Part shown: one piece after another, positions 674 through 14,865 of the stretch
How the letters are laid out: each line of letters starts with the position of its first letter
Numbering within the stretch: the first letter of the stretch is position 1
Source of the DNA: a virus
Taxonomy: Duplodnaviria; Caudoviricetes
Strand: one strand, 5' to 3'
Length of the DNA: 64,000 nt
Virus record (IMG/VR): IMGVR_UViG_3300037484_000435
Coordinates: 481,323 to 545,322 of that record
Program-made: the position numbers and the translations under genes
The notes under the pieces: model-generated
The model's input: only the letters and a program-made list of their open reading frames with translations
The model's database searches: none
Told to the model about the DNA's origin: nothing

Positions 674-1783
674 ATGAAATTAACCGTCCCTCTAAAGCTA
701 CTAACCGATGGAACTCAATCTAAAATCCTTCACGATACTATTCTGGAGGCTAATAGGGTAAGTAATTTAATCGCGTCTATTGCTTGGGAACGGCATACAG
801 TAGGTAAGATTGCTCTACAAAAATTAGTTTACCATGATCTACGTAACAAAACTACTCTGTCATCACAAATGTTAATTCATGCGATTCATAAAGTTGCTGA
901 TGCTTATCGGATTAACAAAAAGGTTGTTCCCCAGTTTAACCCCAAAGGTTCTATTGCTTATGATGCACGGATACTTACCGTTCGGAATGAAAAACAATAC
1001 ATCACAATATGGACAACATTGGGACGCATCAAAGTTGCTTACACGTCAGGCACTAAACAGCTTAAGTTATTAAATCAAACTATCAAGATTGGGGAATGTG
1101 ACCTCATCTTGAGAAATAACCGATGGTACCTACATTGCTCTCTAGAAGTTCCTGAGAAGCACCATCAAAAACCCCAAGGCATGTTGGGAGTCGATCTCGG
1201 AATTAAGAATATTGCGGTAACTTCCGACAATAAGGTTTATTGTGGTGCCCAACTTAACAGTTTACGTAAACGCCACTGCCGTTTGCGTGCTAAATTGCAA
1301 TCGAAGGGAACCCGTTCCGCAAAACGGTTGCTACGTAAACGTAGTAAACGTGAATCTCGGATGGCGCGCAACGCTAATCACATAATCTCCAAACGTATTG
1401 TTGCCACGGCTAAATGCACGAAGCGTAGTATTGCCCTTGAAAATCTTAAAGGCATTACTAAGCGGACTAAGGTTTCTAAAGCCCAGCGTAATCAGCAACA
1501 TAGTTGGAGTTTTTACCAACTTAAATCTTTCATTGAATATAAGGCCCGCCTCGTGGGTGTAGAAGTAGTTCTAGTTAATCCTAAAAATACTAGCATCACT
1601 TGCCCTAAATGTGGCTTAATTCGAAAATCCAATCGTCGTGACCGAGATCACTTCGTTTGTAGACGTAAAGAGTGTGGTTACGCTGACCATGCTGATTACG
1701 TGGCCGCTTTAAACATCGCGTCTAAAGCGGCGGTTGTGGGGCATAGCCCTAACGTCAACCAACCCAACGTTTCGGTGGCATAA
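674..1783 (+). CDS. tnpB: IS200/IS605-family TnpB RNA-guided nuclease
   Basis: RuvC-I LGVDLGIKN, RuvC-II IALENL, zinc finger CPKC...CRRKEC, RuvC-III ADYVAALNI; RBS aaggag. Confidence 0.93.
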   Translation: MKLTVPLKLLTDGTQSKILHDTILEANRVSNLIASIAWERHTVGKIALQKLVYHDLRNKTTLSSQMLIHAIHKVADAYRINKKVVPQFNPKGSIAYDARILTVRNEKQYITIWTTLGRIKVAYTSGTKQLKLLNQTIKIGECDLILRNNRWYLHCSLEVPEKHHQKPQGMLGVDLGIKNIAVTSDNKVYCGAQLNSLRKRHCRLRAKLQSKGTRSAKRLLRKRSKRESRMARNANHIISKRIVATAKCTKRSIALENLKGITKRTKVSKAQRNQQHSWSFYQLKSFIEYKARLVGVEVVLVNPKNTSITCPKCGLIRKSNRRDRDHFVCRRKECGYADHADYVAALNIASKAAVVGHSPNVNQPNVSVA

Positions 1784-1838: not shown

Positions 1839-2003
1839 TTAAGATTGATTCTGAGATTTTTCTTTGGGCTTTATATTGGGCCGTTGACGCACGGACAATT
1901 CGCGTCCACAGGATTCACACTTGTAGATGTTTCTTCTACGTGTTCTCCTGTCTAAAACAAACTGACCGCCACAACTTAAGCACTTCAGTCGATCTATTTC
2001 CAT
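1839..2003 (-). CDS. Small zinc-ribbon protein (54 aa; not in ORF track)
   Basis: Manual translation MEIDRLKCLSCGGQ...YKCESCGREL...; two CxxC motifs; RBS ggagagg directly upstream. Confidence 0.7.
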   Translation of the reverse strand: MEIDRLKCLSCGGQFVLDRRTRRRNIYKCESCGRELSVRQRPNIKPKEKSQNQS

Positions 2004-2295
2004 CCTCTCCTAATGAGCACATTTATTGTTATTAGGTAATTTTTACATACAATAGATTTACATTGCACCGAGAATTACCAAACTCGTTAGGGCCTCTTCG
2101 CCAATGTTATAAAGGCTTTTTAGGTAATACACACTACCCCTTACTCTCAGGATTGTTTAATGTATTACAACAGAGCCCACCACTAGAGGAGTATGTTGGG
2201 GGTGTTATGACCTAAATAACGTAGCTTCGTATGAAGCTGAGGCTAGTCAACCAAGGCAGTTTAGTGCCTCCACCATTGAGTGGGAGTTAATTGAC
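2004..2295 (-). ncRNA. Orphan IscB-type omega RNA (HEARO) / non-autonomous IS200/605 element
   Basis: Minus strand reads gtcaa...ttgactagcc...acgttatttaggtcat...attaaaca..ctgagag...aagcctttataac..ggcga.gagg, collinear with the omega RNA upstream of iscB at 9576; no iscB ORF follows. Confidence 0.85.
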
Positions 2296-2358
2296 TCTAC
2301 TCCTTTGCTTACCATAGAAATGTGCTACCCAATATAAAAGGCCAGTTAAACTAGCAGA

Positions 2359-2952
2359 CTATTCTTCGTCGTAGTCCGCTGGGTCAAAATACTCTTCGTC
2401 ATCATCAGTAGGCTCTTCCTCAGCTACTGGAGGTGTAACAGCGGCTGCGGCTGCTGCTGCCAGTGCTCGTGCCTTAGCACGCTCAGCTTTTTCCTCGTCG
2501 GACATCTTGGGCCTGCCCCTTCGCTTGGCTGTTTCCTCAGACGTTTCCTCTTTCGCGGGCGTAACTACCTTGGGAGCGGAAGGTTTAGAAGCAACGGGTT
2601 TAACAGGTTCAGTAACCGCGTCTTGCTTCTCGTATTTTGTTATCAACTCCATGATGCTGGCTTCATCATAGTTGACGTTCATTACTTCAGCCAGTTGCTG
2701 AGCAATAGCAGGGCGGCTAGATTTAGGAACTCCCCCAGCAGCTAACGTTCTGAGAGCAACTGCTTCTCGTTGCAAGCTCAATCTAGTGCTGTCAGCCTTA
2801 TCTAAAGCTTCAAGAGCCTCCTTTCTGGTTGTTTCGTTCGCAACAACCTTCTTCTCCAACCGAATCAATTCCTTTTTGATGTATTCTGGTGTTACTGACA
2901 TTAGTCTCCTCAGACTGTTTTGTGTTCCTCTAAAAATGAGGCAACACTTCAT
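2359..2952 (-). CDS. Hypothetical protein: N-terminal coiled coil, AT-hook-like RRGRPK, acidic tail
   Basis: ORF translation; true start may be the internal MSVTPEY. Confidence 0.65.
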   Translation of the reverse strand: MKCCLIFRGTQNSLRRLMSVTPEYIKKELIRLEKKVVANETTRKEALEALDKADSTRLSLQREAVALRTLAAGGVPKSSRPAIAQQLAEVMNVNYDEASIMELITKYEKQDAVTEPVKPVASKPSAPKVVTPAKEETSEETAKRRGRPKMSDEEKAERAKARALAAAAAAAVTPPVAEEEPTDDDEEYFDPADYDEE

Positions 2953-3217: not shown

Positions 3218-3409
3218 ATGTCGAGCGAAAAACCATTGAATGAAAAAGAACTTTATATTTGCTGTCGTTGTGGCTGGATAGGAACGAGGTGGGGAGACTG
3301 TCAACAATGTCCTAATGATGATTTAACGCCAAGGTCTGAGGTTGAACAAACATATCTCAACTGTTTGCAACTACTACAAAAATTTTGGGAATATGACTGG
3401 AATAAGTAA
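3218..3409 (+). CDS. Small zinc-ribbon protein
   Basis: CCRC...CQQC; RBS gagga. Confidence 0.6.
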   Translation: MSSEKPLNEKELYICCRCGWIGTRWGDCQQCPNDDLTPRSEVEQTYLNCLQLLQKFWEYDWNK

Positions 3410-3411
3410 TT

Positions 3412-4203
3412 TTGGAGAGACGGGGAATAACAATGGGATGTTGGAATGGTACTTGTTTGATAAGTAATCTCCCAATCTATGCGGGAGATAAAGTAGTATT
3501 TTTTGTATTAAAGAGAAAACGCTATGCTAAATTAGATGCCGTAGAAGGAGGTCATCATTATGTGGATGACCTGTATGAGCCCTTACTTTACCCTATCGTG
3601 GGGGAGTATGATGACTACGGCTGTATTGAGAATGTGTCCGAAGACTTCTCTTTGATAGAAAAGTATTTTGAAAGCGTTGAATTAACTGAAAACGACTGGG
3701 ACAAAGACAACGATGTTTTCAGAAATATAGAAAGAGGAAATTACAAAGGATACGGCCATGCACTAATTCACAAAGACATCTATGACGCCTTGATCGAGAA
3801 AACCTATGACAGAGGTGAATGGTGGACCAAAGGTAAAAGCCTCAGGGACCATGTAGTAGAAAACATCGAGAAAAAAACAGAGGAATACTTTAGGCATAAA
3901 CAAATTTGGGACAAGGATAACGGGGGCATCCCCTTTAATCTCGTAGGTGGGACGTATGACCTCGTCTGCGGAAGAGATAGTCGCGACTTCTTCATTGCTA
4001 GATACCTCAAGACACAGGATGAAACGCTTCGTAACAAATTGATAGAAACGCACTTAATAAATGTCGTGCTAAGTCAATGTAGGAAATTTTGGTTTACTCA
4101 AACTGGGTCGGGTAGCCAAAGTAGTGAAGTAGAACTGTATGAGATTTTGGCTAATAAGATGATAGAGAAGTGTCAGCGATGGAGTGAAGAGAACGGATAT
4201 TGA
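3412..4203 (+). CDS. Phage hypothetical protein (263 aa; likely start at MGCWNGTC)
   Basis: Long ORF in gene-dense context. Confidence 0.7.
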   Translation: MERRGITMGCWNGTCLISNLPIYAGDKVVFFVLKRKRYAKLDAVEGGHHYVDDLYEPLLYPIVGEYDDYGCIENVSEDFSLIEKYFESVELTENDWDKDNDVFRNIERGNYKGYGHALIHKDIYDALIEKTYDRGEWWTKGKSLRDHVVENIEKKTEEYFRHKQIWDKDNGGIPFNLVGGTYDLVCGRDSRDFFIARYLKTQDETLRNKLIETHLINVVLSQCRKFWFTQTGSGSQSSEVELYEILANKMIEKCQRWSEENGY

Positions 4204-4270
4204 TGTGAGCAATCCAATTAGACTAACCAACTAACACCAACATAACTAAATACTTAGGAGGACTTTTAGA

Positions 4271-4924
4271 TTGAAATTAAAACTACCAATTCTATTTTTG
4301 TTGACCGTAGTGCTGGTAAGTAACGCCAGTGCTTTTCTGTCTTTCGAAGACCACATCATCACGTCTTATCGTGATTCCATAAGGTACGTAGAAAAGGCGG
4401 GAATAAAGGGACCGATAGCCAATGAGATAACCAAATGGGCTATCGTGAGACAACTGCATGAAAATGGGCTTGATCGCCCCGCCACATACTGCATACCTGG
4501 AATAGGGTGCGGTGGTTGGAATGAGGAAAATTTAAAATGGTGCCTTAAACGCATACCTAACAACATACAACTAAGCCAAATCAGAGACTCTGAGGGGGCA
4601 TTAATGTATGTGTTGAAAGGCGAGAAGGCCAACCTTATTTCTACTGCCACTGTGGCACTGTTATTTGATTACTATGTTGAAAAGATGCCGTGGTTCTCAG
4701 CCAAAGAAAAAGAGGCATGGTCCGAATCAAAGAAATATTCCTATCTGATATCCCAAGGTTTTGTATTACCCGATTACGTAGAGGCGTTTGAAAATCTTCG
4801 TGAAGAACGCGAGAAGATTCTCAGGAAGTGCAACGGAGCTTACGGACCAGGAAGAGATAGGATAATAGGAGAGGTTAAGAAACTTGCCCAACTCTTCAAT
4901 CACATATTGGAGACCGGTCGTTAG
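4271..4924 (+). CDS. Secreted hypothetical protein
   Basis: N-terminal signal peptide (MKLKLPILFLLTVVLVSNASA); RBS aggagg. Confidence 0.7.
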   Translation: MKLKLPILFLLTVVLVSNASAFLSFEDHIITSYRDSIRYVEKAGIKGPIANEITKWAIVRQLHENGLDRPATYCIPGIGCGGWNEENLKWCLKRIPNNIQLSQIRDSEGALMYVLKGEKANLISTATVALLFDYYVEKMPWFSAKEKEAWSESKKYSYLISQGFVLPDYVEAFENLREEREKILRKCNGAYGPGRDRIIGEVKKLAQLFNHILETGR

Positions 4925-5646
4925 AGACTGGCAAGAAATTGAGGGAAGAGTAGTCCAACTAACGGGCCCGTGGGAATGTCCTAAATGCAACGGCCATGTT
5001 ATGTTGGACTACGCTTTCTACGAGCATACTGGTGGCTGTGTTGAAAGCAACTCAGACCCAGAAGTTGAACTACAATATGAAGGGCAGGAATATTGCTTCT
5101 GCCCTTACTGCCATGCCAAACTACATTATCCAAAGGATTGGCCAGAACAAAAGGAATCTGTAAAATGATAGTAGGCGATGACATAAAAACAATGGAAGAG
5201 AGTTTGTGTTTCTGCGGCCCATCGTGGGCTGACCGTAGAGCAAAGAGACAATTCTTTATTACAGCGTGGAACCTAGGACCTTACCAAGAGTACCGTTGTA
5301 GCTATTGTGGAAACATGGCTTTGCTTGACACGCGTAACAACGTCTTTATGGTACAAGTGTTAGAGCGGCCCATGTATGACATGAAAGAACAAACAGAGTG
5401 GTATTCTAAACATTGTAGGAGCGTCAAATGAAATTCAAATACTTTGACCCTATTGTCTGTCTCATAACTCTGATGGTCCTAGCCTCCACCTATTACATGT
5501 TCCAAACTTGGATAGCTGTAGTAATTGCCTTTCTACTCATGGTTATTGGACACGATTGGGATTATATCATTCAGCTGAAAAAAGAAATAACCTCTCTGCG
5601 GTATGACTTGGGTAAGGAAAGGCAGACAGGGCCGTGGGATGATTAA
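4884..5646 (+). other. Three small hypothetical CDS (4884-5168 Cys-rich, 5165-5431 CxxC, 5428-5646 membrane)
   Basis: ATGA stop/start overlaps. Confidence 0.6.
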
Positions 5647-9533: not shown

Positions 9534-9575
9534 TAGTTTAACCTTCCTCATTCCTAATTTATATGGAGGTAACGT

Positions 9576-9800
9576 GTCAATTCCTTGTCTTTATGAGATA
9601 GACTTGAAAAAATTAAGTCTAATTGACTAGCCCCCACCCAATGAGTGGAAACGTTATTTAGGTCATGCTACCTGAAAATGCTCCTCAAGTTTTCAGCCCT
9701 AGCGTTTAGGATTAAACAGTTCTGAGAGGTAGGAACAGTGTTCTAAACTTAACAAGCCTTTATAACTGGGCGATGAGGCTCTAACCCTAAGTTGCATCAG
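9576..9800 (+). ncRNA. IscB omega RNA (HEARO)
   Basis: gtcaa...ttgactagcc...acgttatttaggtcat...attaaacag...aagcctttataac...ggcgatgagg directly upstream of iscB; 3' boundary approximate. Confidence 0.88.
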
Positions 9801-9822
9801 CAACAAGGAGTAAAAACTTATT

Positions 9823-11061
9823 GTGTTAGTTTATGTATTAAACAAATGTGGAAAGCCTTTAATGCCCACTACACCACCTAAGGCTAGAATTTTGCTTAAG
9901 GGAGGCAACGCTAAAGTTACCCGAAGAACTCCCTTCACCATACAATTACTCTATGGAAGTTCGGGCTATAAACAACCTATAATGTTGGGTGTAGATTCGG
10001 GTTACGAGCATGTTGGATTGAGTGCTATCACAGAGAAACAAGAATTATTTTCAGCAGAAGTTTTGCTTAGAAAAGACGTTTCTAAATTGTTAACAGAACG
10101 TCGTGCTTATCGTCGTAATAGGCGTGATAGGAAAGTTCGTTATCGTCAACCTCGGTTTCTGAACCGCGTTAGAACAAAACGTAAGGGCTGGCTCGCCCCC
10201 CCTATTCAGCACAAACTGGATAGCCATATTAAGGTAGTAAATAAAGTTTCTGAAATATTACCAATTACAAACATCATAGTAGAAGTAGCCAATTTTGATG
10301 TTCAGCGTATCAAGAATCCTGAGATTAAGGGTAAAGAGTATCAGGAAGGTGACCAGTTTGGTTTTGAGAACGTAAGGGCGTATGTATTGCACCGAGATGA
10401 GCACAAATGCCAGCATTGTAAAGGTAAATCTGGTAACAAACATCTTAATACCCATCACATTGTTTTCAGAAGCAAAGGAGGGAGTGATAGGCCCGATAAC
10501 CTTATTACATTGTGTAAAACATGCCACGACAAACAGCACAAGGGTTTAATCAAACTCAAGGTTAGCCATAGCCGTAGTTTTAAGACTGAAACTTTTATGT
10601 CTATTGTTAGGTATAAAATTGTTGAGCGATTACGTGAGTTGTATAATAACGCGGATACAACATACGGCTATATTACAAAGGCGTTACGTAAGCAGTTATT
10701 TTTAACTAAATCACATATTAACGATGCTTTCATAATTGCTGGGGCTAACATACAAATCCGCAATACCAAAAATTATCTAATTAAACAGGTTCGTAAACAA
10801 AATCGTAAACTATTCAAGGGTGCCCGTAGTCACACTAAGAACACTGCTCAAAGATTTCTCTTCGGTTTTCAACGTTATGATAAAGTAAAGTTTAATAACA
10901 AAGATTATCACATATTCGGAAGAAGGCAGAGAGGGTGTTTTAAACTAAGTAATCTAGAGTCAGGACTCTTAAAAACTGAACCCACCTATAAGAAACTAAA
11001 ACTTCTGGAAAGCTTCAAAACATTTTTATGGGAGGTAAAGATGGTCCCTAACAATGTTTAG
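9823..11061 (+). CDS. iscB: IscB RNA-guided endonuclease (RRXRR/HEARO-associated)
   Basis: PLMP motif, RuvC-I LGVDSG, Arg-rich bridge helix, RuvC-II IVEVANFD, HNH HHIVFRSKGGSDRPDNLITLCKTCHDKQH, RuvC-III SHINDA. Confidence 0.95.
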   Translation: MLVYVLNKCGKPLMPTTPPKARILLKGGNAKVTRRTPFTIQLLYGSSGYKQPIMLGVDSGYEHVGLSAITEKQELFSAEVLLRKDVSKLLTERRAYRRNRRDRKVRYRQPRFLNRVRTKRKGWLAPPIQHKLDSHIKVVNKVSEILPITNIIVEVANFDVQRIKNPEIKGKEYQEGDQFGFENVRAYVLHRDEHKCQHCKGKSGNKHLNTHHIVFRSKGGSDRPDNLITLCKTCHDKQHKGLIKLKVSHSRSFKTETFMSIVRYKIVERLRELYNNADTTYGYITKALRKQLFLTKSHINDAFIIAGANIQIRNTKNYLIKQVRKQNRKLFKGARSHTKNTAQRFLFGFQRYDKVKFNNKDYHIFGRRQRGCFKLSNLESGLLKTEPTYKKLKLLESFKTFLWEVKMVPNNV

Positions 11062-11081
11062 GTAGACCATTACACAAAGGT

Positions 11082-11282
11082 ATGGATTGGCAGATTGGAG
11101 ACATAGCAGTTATTGACCAAGATTATGATCGCTCAGCAAGCGACAGTCTATTCTATTTACTGGAGTTCTCGAACGATACAGCAAGTGGTTACCTAGAAAA
11201 AGATAATCAGAAAATCGATTATTCCTGCCCCATATCAAAAATCAGAAGAGTTGCAAAAGTAATAAAGTTCCACACACAATAA
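11082..11282 (+). CDS. Small hypothetical protein
   Basis: ORF starting ATGGA right after the IscB element. Confidence 0.6.
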   Translation: MDWQIGDIAVIDQDYDRSASDSLFYLLEFSNDTASGYLEKDNQKIDYSCPISKIRRVAKVIKFHTQ

Positions 11283-11302: not shown

Positions 11303-11971
11303 ATGGCTCTTAAAGTTGGCGTAATCGGAGGCACATTCAATCCTATTCATAACGGACATTTACGGCTGGCGGAAGTCATGCTGGAGGCAGAGAAATTTGA
11401 TAATATTATTTTTGTTCCCTCTTTTAACCCGCCCTTAAAAGACCAAGACATCGTTTCCTTTGACCAGAGAGTGAGCATGCTTCAACTTGCCATAGAGGAC
11501 AATCCCTCCTTTGTAATCTCTACAATTGAACAAGACCTCTTAGGAAAATCCTATACCTTCAACATGCTACAAAAACTAATAGAAGAGTCCCCCAGTGTAG
11601 AGTTTACTTTTATCCTCGGGGCCGAGTGTTGGAATCAGATGAAGTCTTGGTATAAACCCATTGAAACTCTCGGTCTCTGTGATTTCCTGTTTGTGTGTGA
11701 TTCTGAACGAAGGTGTGCTGGGGATATTGCTTGGTCTGAGGGCGACCCGATGGTAAGACAGGCTCTTGGGGTAGTGCATAATAACAAGAAAGAATTTGTG
11801 CATCCCTCAGGAACTCGGGTAAGGTTCGAGGTTCACCCAACCCCTAAGATACGATCGACAGAGATAAGGTGGATATGTGCAAAGGGAAAAAGTTGTAGAT
11901 ACCTTCTACCAGAGAGTGTCTACAAATATATTCTACAACACAGGCTTTATAATTTATCCCAAAAGTTTTAA
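11303..11971 (+). CDS. nadD: Nicotinate-nucleotide adenylyltransferase
   Basis: GVIGGTFNPIHNGH (HIGH-like), FILGAE, IRSTEIR (SST-like), YLLPESVYKYI. Confidence 0.92.
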   Translation: MALKVGVIGGTFNPIHNGHLRLAEVMLEAEKFDNIIFVPSFNPPLKDQDIVSFDQRVSMLQLAIEDNPSFVISTIEQDLLGKSYTFNMLQKLIEESPSVEFTFILGAECWNQMKSWYKPIETLGLCDFLFVCDSERRCAGDIAWSEGDPMVRQALGVVHNNKKEFVHPSGTRVRFEVHPTPKIRSTEIRWICAKGKSCRYLLPESVYKYILQHRLYNLSQKF

Positions 11972-12027: not shown

Positions 12028-13113
12028 ATGATTGTGAAACATGCCTATAAATATCACATATACCCTAATACTGACCAAAAGAAACAACTTGAATCTTACT
12101 TTGGATGTTCTAGGTATGTCTATAATCATTATTTAAAACAAAGAATTGATTGCTATATGTTGCACAAAGTCGGTCTCGGGTATGTGGACAACTGTAGTGA
12201 CCTAGTATTTCTAAAGAGACAAAAGCCTTGGTTGTCTGAAGCCATCGCTCAGTCATTACAGGCATCACTCAAGGATCTTGAATCAGCTTACACTAATTTT
12301 TTTAGAGGGACCACAAAATTTCCGAGTTTCAAGAAAAAACACAACAAACAAAGTTTTCGTGTTCCCCAAAAATTCAAGGTCAATTCCACTTCAATTACTA
12401 TCCCTAAGGTGGGCAAGATCAAAGCCAAAATACATCGTCCAATAGGAGACAAGATCTGCAATGTTACTATTAGTAAAACTCCTGCAGGAAAGTATTATGC
12501 TTCTGTGTTATGTGAAGTTTATATTGAGGATCCAAAATTTGAAGGCAATATAATCGGGATCGATTTGGGGATTAGAGATTATTTGGTTGACAGTAATGGG
12601 AATCGCGTCCCTAACCCGAAATATCTTCAAAAGTCCTTAGTGAAGCTTAAACGACTCCAACAAATACTAAGTAGCAAAGTTCAAGGTTCTAGTGATTACC
12701 ATAAATTACGGCGTAAGCTTGCGAAACTACACGAAAAGATTCAGAACCAACGTTCAGATTTTCAGCATAAACTTGCTTTACAACTGGTGCGTGAAAACCA
12801 AACCATCTGTTGTGAAACTTTAGCTGTAAAGAGGATGTTGACTGAGTCTGATCCAGTGCTAGCCAGATACATTTTAGATGCAGGATGGTACCAGTTCATT
12901 TCTTTTTTGAATTACAAAGGACCTTGGTATGGTTGCCACATAAATCAAATAGAGCAGTTTTATCCTAGCAGTAAACGGCATTTCGAATGTGGTTATATTA
13001 ATGAACATCTAAACCTTTCTGATAGAGAGTGGTTATGCCCACAATGTAACTCGATGGTTGATAGAGACCTTAATGCTGCTAAAAATATTCTCGCCGCGGG
13101 GACCGCGGTTTAA
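12028..13113 (+). CDS. tnpB: IS605-family TnpB with N-terminal HTH
   Basis: AYKYHIYPN...FGCSRYVYN, RuvC-I IGIDLGI, RuvC-II CCETL, H/CxxC zinc finger, DRDLNAAKNI. Confidence 0.93.
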   Translation: MIVKHAYKYHIYPNTDQKKQLESYFGCSRYVYNHYLKQRIDCYMLHKVGLGYVDNCSDLVFLKRQKPWLSEAIAQSLQASLKDLESAYTNFFRGTTKFPSFKKKHNKQSFRVPQKFKVNSTSITIPKVGKIKAKIHRPIGDKICNVTISKTPAGKYYASVLCEVYIEDPKFEGNIIGIDLGIRDYLVDSNGNRVPNPKYLQKSLVKLKRLQQILSSKVQGSSDYHKLRRKLAKLHEKIQNQRSDFQHKLALQLVRENQTICCETLAVKRMLTESDPVLARYILDAGWYQFISFLNYKGPWYGCHINQIEQFYPSSKRHFECGYINEHLNLSDREWLCPQCNSMVDRDLNAAKNILAAGTAV

Positions 13114-13206: not shown

Positions 13207-14865
13207 ATGCGGGCATGTACACATAAGAAAGGAATCACAATGCTACCCACAAAAATCCTAGCAGACGGGATTGAAAGAGCTTTTGAACACCGAAAGTTTC
13301 CATGGGATTTCTATTTTATCGCGATGGCAGAAGCTGATTGGCGGGCTGGTCGAGCAGATTTACCAGCAACCAAGAGTTTTTATATACGAAACGCTCCCTT
13401 TGGCGGAAGTTACTGTCTCCTTGGTGGTATCACTGAGGCTCTAGTAACTATTAAGAATCTGGATTTCCTCAGCAAAGATTTCTTTCACGGTGCTGTTCAT
13501 ATGGGCTCTTCTCCAGATTTTGTGAATTGGCTGGCTGTTCGAGAAAGGTTGCGTATTCGTGTTATTGGTGGGAGAGAGGGAACTGTGTTCTTCCCCAACG
13601 AACCTATCGTAACAGTACAGGGGCCATTAGCAGATATTCGTTTGGTTGAGGGTATTCTGACTTATGCCCTGAACTTTTCTTCTTTGTCGTTAACTAAGTG
13701 GTATCGAGTCGTAAAAGCGGCCCGCCCAGGACAAGTTTTGGATTTCTCTTTGAGAAGGGCACAGAACAGTAGACGTGCATCCCTGAACGCAATGCTGGCA
13801 GGATGCTCTGCCACATCTAACTGCGACATAGCAGAATTCTTTGACGTTCCCGTCCGAGGCACAATGGGACATGAATACCCAATGGGTCATGGAGACGTTA
13901 AGATAGCTTTTGAGCAGTGGTTGGAATATCAACCTAATCGACCTATCGGTTTGATTGACACCCTGCAATGCTTGGAGAACGACTTTCCTCTTTGGCTCGA
14001 CGCTGTATACAAATATCGGGAAAAGATTAAGAATGCAGGGTCTCCTATTTGGGGATGGCGAAATGATTCGGGTGACCTCGGTTACCTAACAGTTGAGCAA
14101 TACAGACGCTTCCTCAACCATGAGTTGGCAAAGGACGAATGGTTCCGAGAGCGGATGAGGGTTATTTTAACGAATGAGCTGGACGAGTATACAATCACAG
14201 CGATTATAAACCAAATAAGAGATGATGCTGAGCCCGCAGGTTTAGATGTCCATGATATCAAAAGTCGGATTATATGGGCGGCGGGCACGCGACCTGGAGT
14301 TTGCGAAGACCAGCCCTCTCTGGGCGGTGTAGCCAAACTTATGGAAGTAGACGGTTGTCCTACTCTTAAACCAGCATTGGATTCGGATGGACATCCTGGT
14401 CCCAAGACGTCGATACCAGGATTTAATCTATCGTGCTTGGTGCCCAATGGAGACAGCAGTATCGCATGTTGTCTAATATATCCTGCACATCATTATAATC
14501 TTGTGTCCGATGGAGCAGGTGGGTGGTCTTTACACAATAAAAAGACAAGCAAGACACCCAAAACAATAGTCACCATGCACAAGGATTCCAGCTCGTCTTT
14601 TATGGAGTTGAAAAATCAAGGTTTGATTGCACAGCAAGATTGCCTCTACGATTCTACCCAAGGTGCTTCCGTGCTAGGTGACGCGTGGCTGGAAACACTA
14701 GATGGAGTTACAAAGCGGATAGAAGATGGTATTGGTAGACTCCACTTCACAATGACATCGAGGCTGGTGAAGCCCCACAGTATGAAAGTATCGGTAACAC
14801 CCGACCTCTTTGAGCTGCGGGATTCTATGTTGAAAAATAAGACCTTGATGGGAGAGAAATCTTAA
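13207..14865 (+). CDS. pncB: Nicotinate phosphoribosyltransferase (likely start MLPTK)
   Basis: FYIRNAPFGGSY, DFSLRRAQ, GTMGH (phospho-His), LIDT, RNDSGDL, TNELDE, GGVAKL: Firmicute/eukaryote-type NAPRTase motifs. Confidence 0.85.
   Translation: MRACTHKKGITMLPTKILADGIERAFEHRKFPWDFYFIAMAEADWRAGRADLPATKSFYIRNAPFGGSYCLLGGITEALVTIKNLDFLSKDFFHGAVHMGSSPDFVNWLAVRERLRIRVIGGREGTVFFPNEPIVTVQGPLADIRLVEGILTYALNFSSLSLTKWYRVVKAARPGQVLDFSLRRAQNSRRASLNAMLAGCSATSNCDIAEFFDVPVRGTMGHEYPMGHGDVKIAFEQWLEYQPNRPIGLIDTLQCLENDFPLWLDAVYKYREKIKNAGSPIWGWRNDSGDLGYLTVEQYRRFLNHELAKDEWFRERMRVILTNELDEYTITAIINQIRDDAEPAGLDVHDIKSRIIWAAGTRPGVCEDQPSLGGVAKLMEVDGCPTLKPALDSDGHPGPKTSIPGFNLSCLVPNGDSSIACCLIYPAHHYNLVSDGAGGWSLHNKKTSKTPKTIVTMHKDSSSSFMELKNQGLIAQQDCLYDSTQGASVLGDAWLETLDGVTKRIEDGIGRLHFTMTSRLVKPHSMKVSVTPDLFELRDSMLKNKTLMGEKS

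Follow-up and report, generated by a model that had tools for sequence, protein, structure and literature searches.

Two IscB-type elements in a phage genome

The window analysed here is the final 64 kb (64,000 nt; positions 481,323 to 545,322) of the 545,322-bp phage record IMGVR_UViG_3300037484_000435 (42% G+C). It contains two IscB-type elements, named A and B, lying on opposite strands, each of which separates a Shine–Dalgarno (SD) motif from the start codon of a small conserved gene. Element B carries an omegaRNA scaffold of the HEARO family followed by an iscB gene, whereas element A is gene-less (Table 1). Two further HEARO copies were identified in the whole genome, copy C at genome position 27045 (+) and copy D at genome position 136267 (−), so that there are four in all; B, C and D each encode an IscB of 412–420 aa. 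The genome also carries three TnpB genes. A search for the Y1 TnpA transposase (PF01797) gave no match in the 545-kb record, while control genomes were positive in the same search; the elements are thus non-autonomous, like most iscB elements. In such elements the omegaRNA guide comes from the flank located 5′ of the scaffold, and the target-adjacent motif (TAM), which is used by both TnpA and IscB, abuts the other end (Meers et al., 2023; 10.1101/2023.03.14.532601).

Both scaffolds cover the full length of the HEARO model (RF02033) at scores to be compared with a gathering score of 83, and the 5′ boundaries of A and B are thus set independently of the preliminary description of this DNA. The scaffold of element B probably extends further, to about 9822. 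Its IscB matches the Pfam domains RRXRR (residues 3–176, 5.6e-66) and HNH (residues 196–240, 2.1e-10), as well as the solved IscB structures 7xht, 7utn and 11hr, with E values down to 7.7e-50. The presumed guide of element B, tatatggaggtaacgt, consists of the SD and its spacer, and the 66-aa protein encoded immediately downstream has five homologues, all of which align from residue 1. Element B therefore displays every sequence-level feature of a non-autonomous IscB–omegaRNA element, RNA-guided cleavage itself being predicted.

No IscB open reading frame (ORF) was found in element A. Downstream of its scaffold, about 80 nt hold a trace of the iscB start, a CCTAAT/ATTAGG motif and the tail AGGAGAGG (2011–2004). 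The scaffold regions of A and B are 74% identical and the CCTAA/TTAGG end motif is common to both elements. Element A is thus a PATE/MITE-like derivative that has kept both parental ends and no coding gene; it is an internally deleted copy, reduced to scaffold and end, and would need IscB in trans.

The preliminary description had recognised both features as IscB-type, in agreement with the HEARO omegaRNA of the two elements and the RRXRR and HNH domains of B. The motifs on which it relied are all present: ggaggtaacgt/GTCAA (its G at 9576) and aaaggagtaga/GTCAA (its G at 2295, minus strand), the gene starts at 11082 and 2003, the tails aaaggt and ggagagg, and the inverted motifs cctaa-caatgt-ttagg (11047–11062) and cctaat...attagg (2036–2009). 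It had also seen similar terminal hairpins in the two elements. The shared motif is real, but its folding is weak: in element B the stem of 11 bp is interrupted, with a DNA fold of −6 kcal/mol and a z-score of about −1.3 to −1.6, and in element A the CCTAAT/ATTAGG pairing (2036–2009) is not part of the minimum-energy fold.

Table 1. Features of elements A and B and of their flanks. Positions are those of the window unless a contig (L) or the phage genome is named.
Feature	Position	Strand	Remarks
Element B	9576..11081	+	1,506 bp; complete non-autonomous IscB–omegaRNA element; 5′ end from HEARO, both ends from empty alleles L110/L111
5′ flank/presumed guide of element B	9560..9575	+	16 nt; native SD GGAGG (9565–9569) and 6-nt spacer taacgt
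OmegaRNA scaffold of element B, HEARO RF02033	9576..9785	+	cmscan 127.5 bits, model positions 1–211 of 211
iscB	9823..11061	+	412 aa, GTG start
Imperfect subterminal hairpin	11041..11070	+	atggtc-cctaa / ttagg-ta-gaccat; overlaps the final iscB codons
Tail of element B, iscB stop to start codon	11062..11081	+	Ends aaaggt, a poor SD at 1-nt spacing; not in empty allele L110
Conserved 66-aa gene	11082..11282	+	Starts ATGGATTGG; first bases ATGGA are the 3′ flank of element B and presumed TAM
Element A	2004..2295	−	292 nt; omegaRNA scaffold, iscB-start trace and end motif; ends fixed by empty allele L109
OmegaRNA scaffold of element A, HEARO RF02033	2295–2086	−	129.3 bits, full model length
5′ flank/presumed guide of element A	2296..2311	−	Native SD AAGGAG (2305–2300) and spacer taga
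54-aa zinc-ribbon gene	1839..2003	−	Starts ATGGAAATA; ATGGA (2003–1999) abuts element A
197-aa gene upstream of element A	2359..2952	−	Empty-site anchor; 62% identity to L109:685–1254
Empty alleles compared with guides of A and D	L109:1300–1320 and L107:2845–2863 versus window 2296–2311 and phage genome 136268–136283	− (window and phage genome)	

Empty alleles fix the boundaries to the base

The flanks of B and A were joined in silico (9576–11081 or 2004–2295 removed) and aligned to related phage contigs. Two contigs, L110 and L111, encode a homologue of the 66-aa protein (P0064, 60% identity), preceded by ...ttcctcattcattctgtggaggtaacgt and starting ATGGATTGGCAA. Their empty allele reads ...tggaggtaacgt/ATGGATTGG..., with ggaggtaacgt immediately before ATGGATTGG in L110, to be compared with ...ttcctcattcctaatttatatggaggtaacgt / element / ATGGATTGGCAG in the window, and the joined flanks align with L110 without any gap at the junction. 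The guide of element B matches L110 at 14 of its 16 positions, the last 12 nt being identical and the mismatches lying far from the TAM, and the adjacent flank is ATGGA. For element A, the 54-aa protein has a single homologue (P0063; 62% identity, 96% coverage), which is found precisely at an empty site in contig L109, where it follows a 189-aa protein 62% identical to the 197-aa protein encoded upstream of element A. In L109, gaaggagttat is followed by ATGGAA (intergenic region ...gtagcacatttttatggttagcgaaggagttat/ATGGAATTA); the window reads ...gtagcacatttctatggtaagcaaaggagtaga / 292 nt / ATGGAAATA, and here too the junction aligns without a gap. Copy D can be treated in the same way: it lies between ...aaggaaatattta and ATGGCGTGG, with AAGGAA and a spacer on one side and the ATGG start of RNase HII on the other, and in contigs L107 and L108 the UDG homologue is directly followed by RNase HII (junction ...aaggaaatattag/ATGGCTTGG). 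No empty site was found for copy C.

HEARO position 1 coincides exactly with the point at which the left parts of the empty alleles of L110, L109 and L107 stop. Comparison of joined flanks and empty alleles shows zero duplicated bases, as expected for IS200/IS605 insertions. Elements A and B and copy D thus each sit, to the base, between an SD with a spacer of 4–8 nt and an ATGG start codon. The boundaries proposed in the preliminary description were exact, since they coincide with HEARO model position 1 and the empty alleles agree with them for A (L109) and B (L110/L111). Differing junctions in empty alleles would have refuted that description, and it passed this check for both elements; copy D (L107/L108) passed it as well. 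Its observation that the first gene after each of the two elements starts with ATGGA also stands, these genes being conserved and their homologues aligning from residue 1. Across the four HEARO copies, the SD and spacer length of the 5′ flank are GGAGG with 6 nt, AAGGAG with 4 nt, AAGGAA with 8 nt and GAGAGGA with 4 nt. The 3′ flanks are ATGGAT (B), ATGGAA (A), ATGGCG (D) and ATGA (copy C and the IsrB element described below). The TAM had been predicted to be ATGGA; the flank does begin with ATGG, but the motif is probably ATGG(N), because copy D has ATGGC. That an IscB TAM can contain ATG was already known, the TAM of GstIscB, TTCAT in left-end orientation, being ATGAA on the iscB strand (Meers et al., 2023).

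For A and D, empty alleles and guides disagree mainly at two or three spacer bases proximal to the TAM, in the presumed seed (compared regions in Table 1). Such differences may have arisen by escape from cleavage, or the spacer may just be under weak constraint.

Three other candidate ends were set aside. An alignment of the C-termini of the IscB proteins of B and D would place the right end of element B between 11040 and 11041 (TAM ATGGT); L110 puts it between 11081 and 11082. A terminal hairpin cctag...cttagg proposed for copy D is RNase HII coding sequence and is also present in the empty alleles; the end of copy D is the iscB stop, and no obvious terminal hairpin is visible there. Finally, a right end of copy C at tatcc/ATGAGG, with an in-frame gene fusion, was rejected on finding the same TGAGGAAT... 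tail before unrelated genes in two related loci, L005 and L030.

Insertion at start codons recurs across the family

All four HEARO elements of the phage, and its IsrB element, end at a start codon. The genome contains 9,488 ATGR sites (ATGA or ATGG) on both strands, of which a few percent are starts, so that four or five elements all ending at starts is far from chance. In a crude ORF set of this genome, 323 of the 633 ORFs begin with ATGA or ATGG, and an SD is present before 460 of the 633 long ORFs, SDs thus being in wide use in this phage. The IsrB element (phage genome 470976–472200, minus strand, approximately 9 kb before the window) deserves a separate description: its stop overlaps the ATG (tcATGAtt) of a downstream small ORF of CxxC type, and no clear SD is seen in its 5′ flank, the 5′ boundary of this element not being fixed.

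We then considered relatives from other genomes. About 100 loci whose IscB is 38–64% identical were fetched and reduced to 32 non-redundant ones, and their HEARO starts were fixed with Rfam. Counting from the iscB stop onwards, the first ATGR marks the beginning of an ORF of 40 aa or more in 23 of the 32, as do 31% of other ATGR sites (p 3e-6). In 12/32 the 5′ boundary is preceded at 3–12 nt by an SD motif, compared with 10.5% at random positions (p 5e-5), and the element tail contains an SD motif in 10/32 (same background of 10.5%; p 1e-3). In seven loci (L041, L046, L047, L066, L079, L081 and L084) the next ORF starts with an ATGA(A) that touches or overlaps the iscB stop, and in seven others (L036, L037, L048, L052, L077, L078 and L098) the stop lies within about 50 nt of such an ATGA(A). 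The start-codon niche is thus enriched across the family without being universal.

Some relatives carry closely similar elements inserted independently at different sites. The L081 and L084 elements are 98% identical up to ...caattatgATGAA (...attatgATGAA) and then diverge; the ATG opens both downstream ORFs, one of which is GTPase-like. Copy C and the L005 element are 71% identical and have the common tail TGAGGAATATTYG (ggggtatcc-RTGAGGAATATTYG) followed by ATGA, before downstream genes that are unrelated, and a similar tail precedes ATGGCACG in L030. This common tail before unrelated genes indicates that it probably belongs to the element, as does the GAGGAA that it places 7 nt before the ATG in copy C.

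Some peculiarities of these relatives should also be noted. In L081, about 28 nt have been inserted or duplicated within the first omegaRNA stem (L081:1845–1900) of an element otherwise 98% identical to that of L084; GTCAACTACCAC occurs 36 nt upstream of its Rfam start, and the guide–scaffold junction may be damaged. Two elements 97.7% identical, in L072 and L073, share about 50 nt corresponding to an ORF end upstream of the HEARO start (L072:1466–1516 and L073:780–830), after which the flanks diverge; the shared stretch could be flank that was co-converted, or the element could be longer at this end. L007 and 36 similar loci (IMG/VR 3300045988, human-gut assemblies) represent a widespread phage lineage with an IscB element at a single site, and the first 50 nt of the omegaRNA region differ between L007 and L020.

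We may wonder whether SD and ATG are together what the insertion machinery recognises, as is suggested by the wording of the preliminary description, in which the element targets initiation sites; the specificity would then be built in rather than the result of selection. The four HEARO copies of the phage all have an SD 4–9 nt before the boundary, and the enrichment of SDs in the 5′ flanks of the relatives points the same way. However, the TnpA of IS200/IS605 elements reads only a short TAM next to the end (Meers et al., 2023), the guides are passively copied from the flank, and 20 of the 32 relatives have no SD there. Recognition of the SD is not favoured because the flank SDs and their spacers vary between copies and are missing in two thirds of the relatives. 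Active targeting is therefore quite unlikely, and selection in a genome that is 90% coding and has no TnpA, followed by homing, is the better explanation of the pattern.

Translation of the displaced genes

All the genes downstream of the insertions are intact and conserved, and the way in which they stay translated appears, judged from sequence, to differ between copies. In element A, AAGGAG with a 4-nt spacer is replaced by the element's own AGGAG with a 3-nt spacer. Copy C supplies its own GAGGAA, 7 nt before the ATG and conserved in L005. The re-supply of a ribosome-binding site, which the preliminary description had proposed for both elements of the window, is plausible for element A and for copy C. 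Copy D has no SD, but only 1 nt separates its TGA stop from the ATG; a stop that abuts the start codon, or overlaps it as in the IsrB element, may allow translational coupling. Element B is the weak case: GGAGG and its 6-nt spacer have given way to AAAGG at a spacing of 1 nt, and 20 nt separate the iscB stop from the start codon. Coupling by termination and reinitiation requires that stop and start overlap or lie very close together, and it is reported to be almost abolished at such a distance (PMC10666635). Since element B lacks both a good SD and a nearby stop, its insertion may reduce the expression of the 66-aa gene.

The insertion might accordingly not be silent at all: at least element B would lower or uncouple the translation of the 66-aa gene, an effect that would be tolerated or regulatory, and the SD-like tails would be by-products of end sequences that transposition requires, rather than adaptations. 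Besides the poor AAAGG of element B and its distant stop, neither the tail of B nor that of D contains an SD according to a strict scan, and the enrichment of tail SDs in the family is modest (10/32). This explanation has to contend with the intact and conserved state of the downstream genes, with the AGGAG of element A, with the GAGGAA kept at a proper spacing in copy C, L005 and L030 across 70%-diverged elements, and with the stop of iscB overlapping or abutting the ATG in about ten relatives. On balance we find it somewhat unlikely.

After insertion of element B, the native SD GGAGG (9565–9569) is followed, 4 nt on, by a GTG (9574–9576) that opens an 18-codon frame ending at a TAG (9565–9633, plus strand). 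Ribosomes loading on this frame through the first omegaRNA stem could disturb the folding or processing of the omegaRNA.

Probable insertion, survival and homing

We consider it probable that both features of the window are non-autonomous IS200/IS605-type OMEGA elements that came to lie at start codons through an ATG-containing TAM, survived there and spread by homing. The TAM of this clade would contain ATG on the iscB strand. With a coding density of about 90%, the ATGR sites of this phage where an insertion breaks no reading frame would mostly be start codons; insertions at these sites would survive, and homing would then spread them. With a start codon as its TAM, the element would also be forced into the orientation of the operon, and the guide would need the resulting read-through transcription. 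The 16 nt before the element, that is the SD and its spacer, would be transcribed as the guide, and the first bases after it, ATGG(N), would be the TAM. In an element-free phage, the ribonucleoprotein would thus find the intact ribosome-binding site of the corresponding gene and cut there, and the element would then be copied in by recombination. L110 is a plausible homing target for element B.

It could be argued instead that the elements are fixed relics. They would be immobile, and the IscB ribonucleoprotein would act mainly to attack related phages in the same cell, provided that their ribosome-binding site matches the guide; the element would not be copied. This would account for a genome in which TnpA was not found, for a guide of element B matching L110 at 14/16 positions next to ATGGA, and for a copy D that ends at the iscB stop with no visible terminal hairpin. 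However, a cut between homologous flanks is normally repaired from the element-bearing copy, which makes exclusion and homing hard to separate. Moreover, element A has lost its gene yet keeps both ends, like mobilisable mini-elements, and related elements occupy different sites in many genomes. We hold this alternative to be unlikely, if a little less so than built-in recognition of initiation sites.

Several points nevertheless weigh against insertion followed by survival and homing. The TAM, the cleavage, the transcription and the translation are all predicted from sequence, and the folding of the terminal hairpins is weak. No TnpA was found in the genome to explain the initial arrival of the elements at these sites. 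The empty alleles for A and D look resistant, so that present-day homing into those phages is unlikely. Among the relatives, the 5′ flank has no SD in 20/32, and the L007-like cluster (37 loci) has no ATGR-starting ORF within 260 nt of the iscB stop. Finally, a silent insertion is doubtful for element B, the IscB carrier of the window; the claim is weakest there because of the AAAGG at 1-nt spacing and the iscB stop 20 nt upstream.

Neighbouring genes and database searches

A TnpB gene (12028–13113, plus strand; OrfB_IS605 and TNB domains) lies downstream of element B between an NMN-adenylyltransferase-like gene (11303–11971) and an NAPRTase-like gene (13207–14865). In the syntenic contig L112 the NMN-adenylyltransferase-like and NAPRTase-like genes are directly adjacent (3243–3929 and 3929–5578), and the TnpB element at 12028–13113 thus likewise occupies a gene junction. 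A second TnpB gene (674–1783, plus strand) is convergent with the 54-aa gene that follows element A; L109, the contig with the empty site, lacks this TnpB gene and has a 113-aa gene instead.

A near-mode search of the phage GenBank collection gave no match, and the distant mode gave only matches that were short and weak. Searches for related loci with single flanking proteins (the 120-aa ORF, UDG, NMNAT and the product of the gene upstream of copy C) found nothing, and among 5.8 billion proteins there is no homologue of the 120-aa ORF, which is located upstream of element B.

Relation to known systems

The closest system is the GstIscB element (ISGst family, Geobacillus stearothermophilus), with which the present elements share a HEARO-type omegaRNA upstream of iscB, a flank-derived guide, an ATG-containing (here presumed) TAM on the other flank, a mostly non-autonomous nature, a bias in orientation relative to the upstream gene and gene-less PATE-like derivatives. 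This bias of iscB towards the upstream gene has been attributed to the need of the guide for read-through transcription (Meers et al., 2023). The flank here is ATGG(N), or ATGA for copy C, and the host is a 545-kb phage without TnpA. The insertion between SD and start codon is proven here, whereas Meers et al. draw no link between TAM and start codons (the term ‘start codon’ appears once, in the methods). The kind of element, an ATGR TAM class close to the one measured, the orientation bias and the homing model are therefore already known or published; the recurring start-codon insertion niche seems to be undescribed.

To our knowledge, no start-codon context is known for OgeuIscB. This homologous protein (7XHT, 7UTN, 8CSZ; E 1.7e-47) has the same RuvC/bridge-helix/HNH architecture and an omegaRNA partner, but it is 496 aa long, compared with 412 aa here, and its TAM is NWRRNA (PMC12660989), without an ATG. 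IStrons, which combine a group I intron with an IS200/IS605-type element (PMC4227781), similarly make their own insertion harmless; they do so by RNA self-splicing inside genes, whereas the present elements would act on translation initiation, through their own SD or stop–start coupling, with no splicing. The free-standing homing endonuclease genes of the T4 seg/mob type are also wedged between conserved phage genes, cut empty alleles and have empty sites in relatives. Their target is recognised by a protein, whereas here it would be recognised by a guide RNA that spells a ribosome-binding site, together with a short TAM.

The paper describing HEARO reportedly notes insertion 5′ of ATGA or GTGA, a statement not used as evidence here. 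Leaving Weinberg (2009) and Altae-Tran (2021) aside, no link of IscB TAMs to start codons or to SD re-supply was found in the literature searched. PMC13565253 may offer a parallel case in which OMEGA elements are linked to ribosome-binding sites.

Significance

The phage offers three elements with exact ends, guides and matching empty targets, one of them near-cognate (14/16 positions and ATGGA), and this system suits experiments on homing and on the TAM with a compact IscB of 412 aa. For annotation, ribosome-binding sites located 0.3–1.5 kb away from their genes can be recognised and rejoined to them.

It is possible, although we advance this only tentatively, that the IscB/IsrB clades with an ATG-containing TAM have become adapted to start codons as landing pads while keeping the displaced gene translated. 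The element would slip between SD and ATG and borrow the promoter of the operon, and its guide would spell the ribosome-binding site. Translation would be kept by an SD in the last 10–15 nt of the element, or by an iscB stop fused to the TAM (ATGA, TGATG). If true, this would be the translation-level counterpart of the self-splicing of IStrons, and it would explain the known orientation bias of iscB elements. More generally, the insertions suggest a testable rule for the persistence of RNA-guided IS200/IS605 elements in gene-dense genomes: given a TAM that contains ATG, the gap between SD and start codon would be the safe site, one that fixes the orientation of the element, supplies the transcription of its guide and makes it possible to re-couple the gene that follows.

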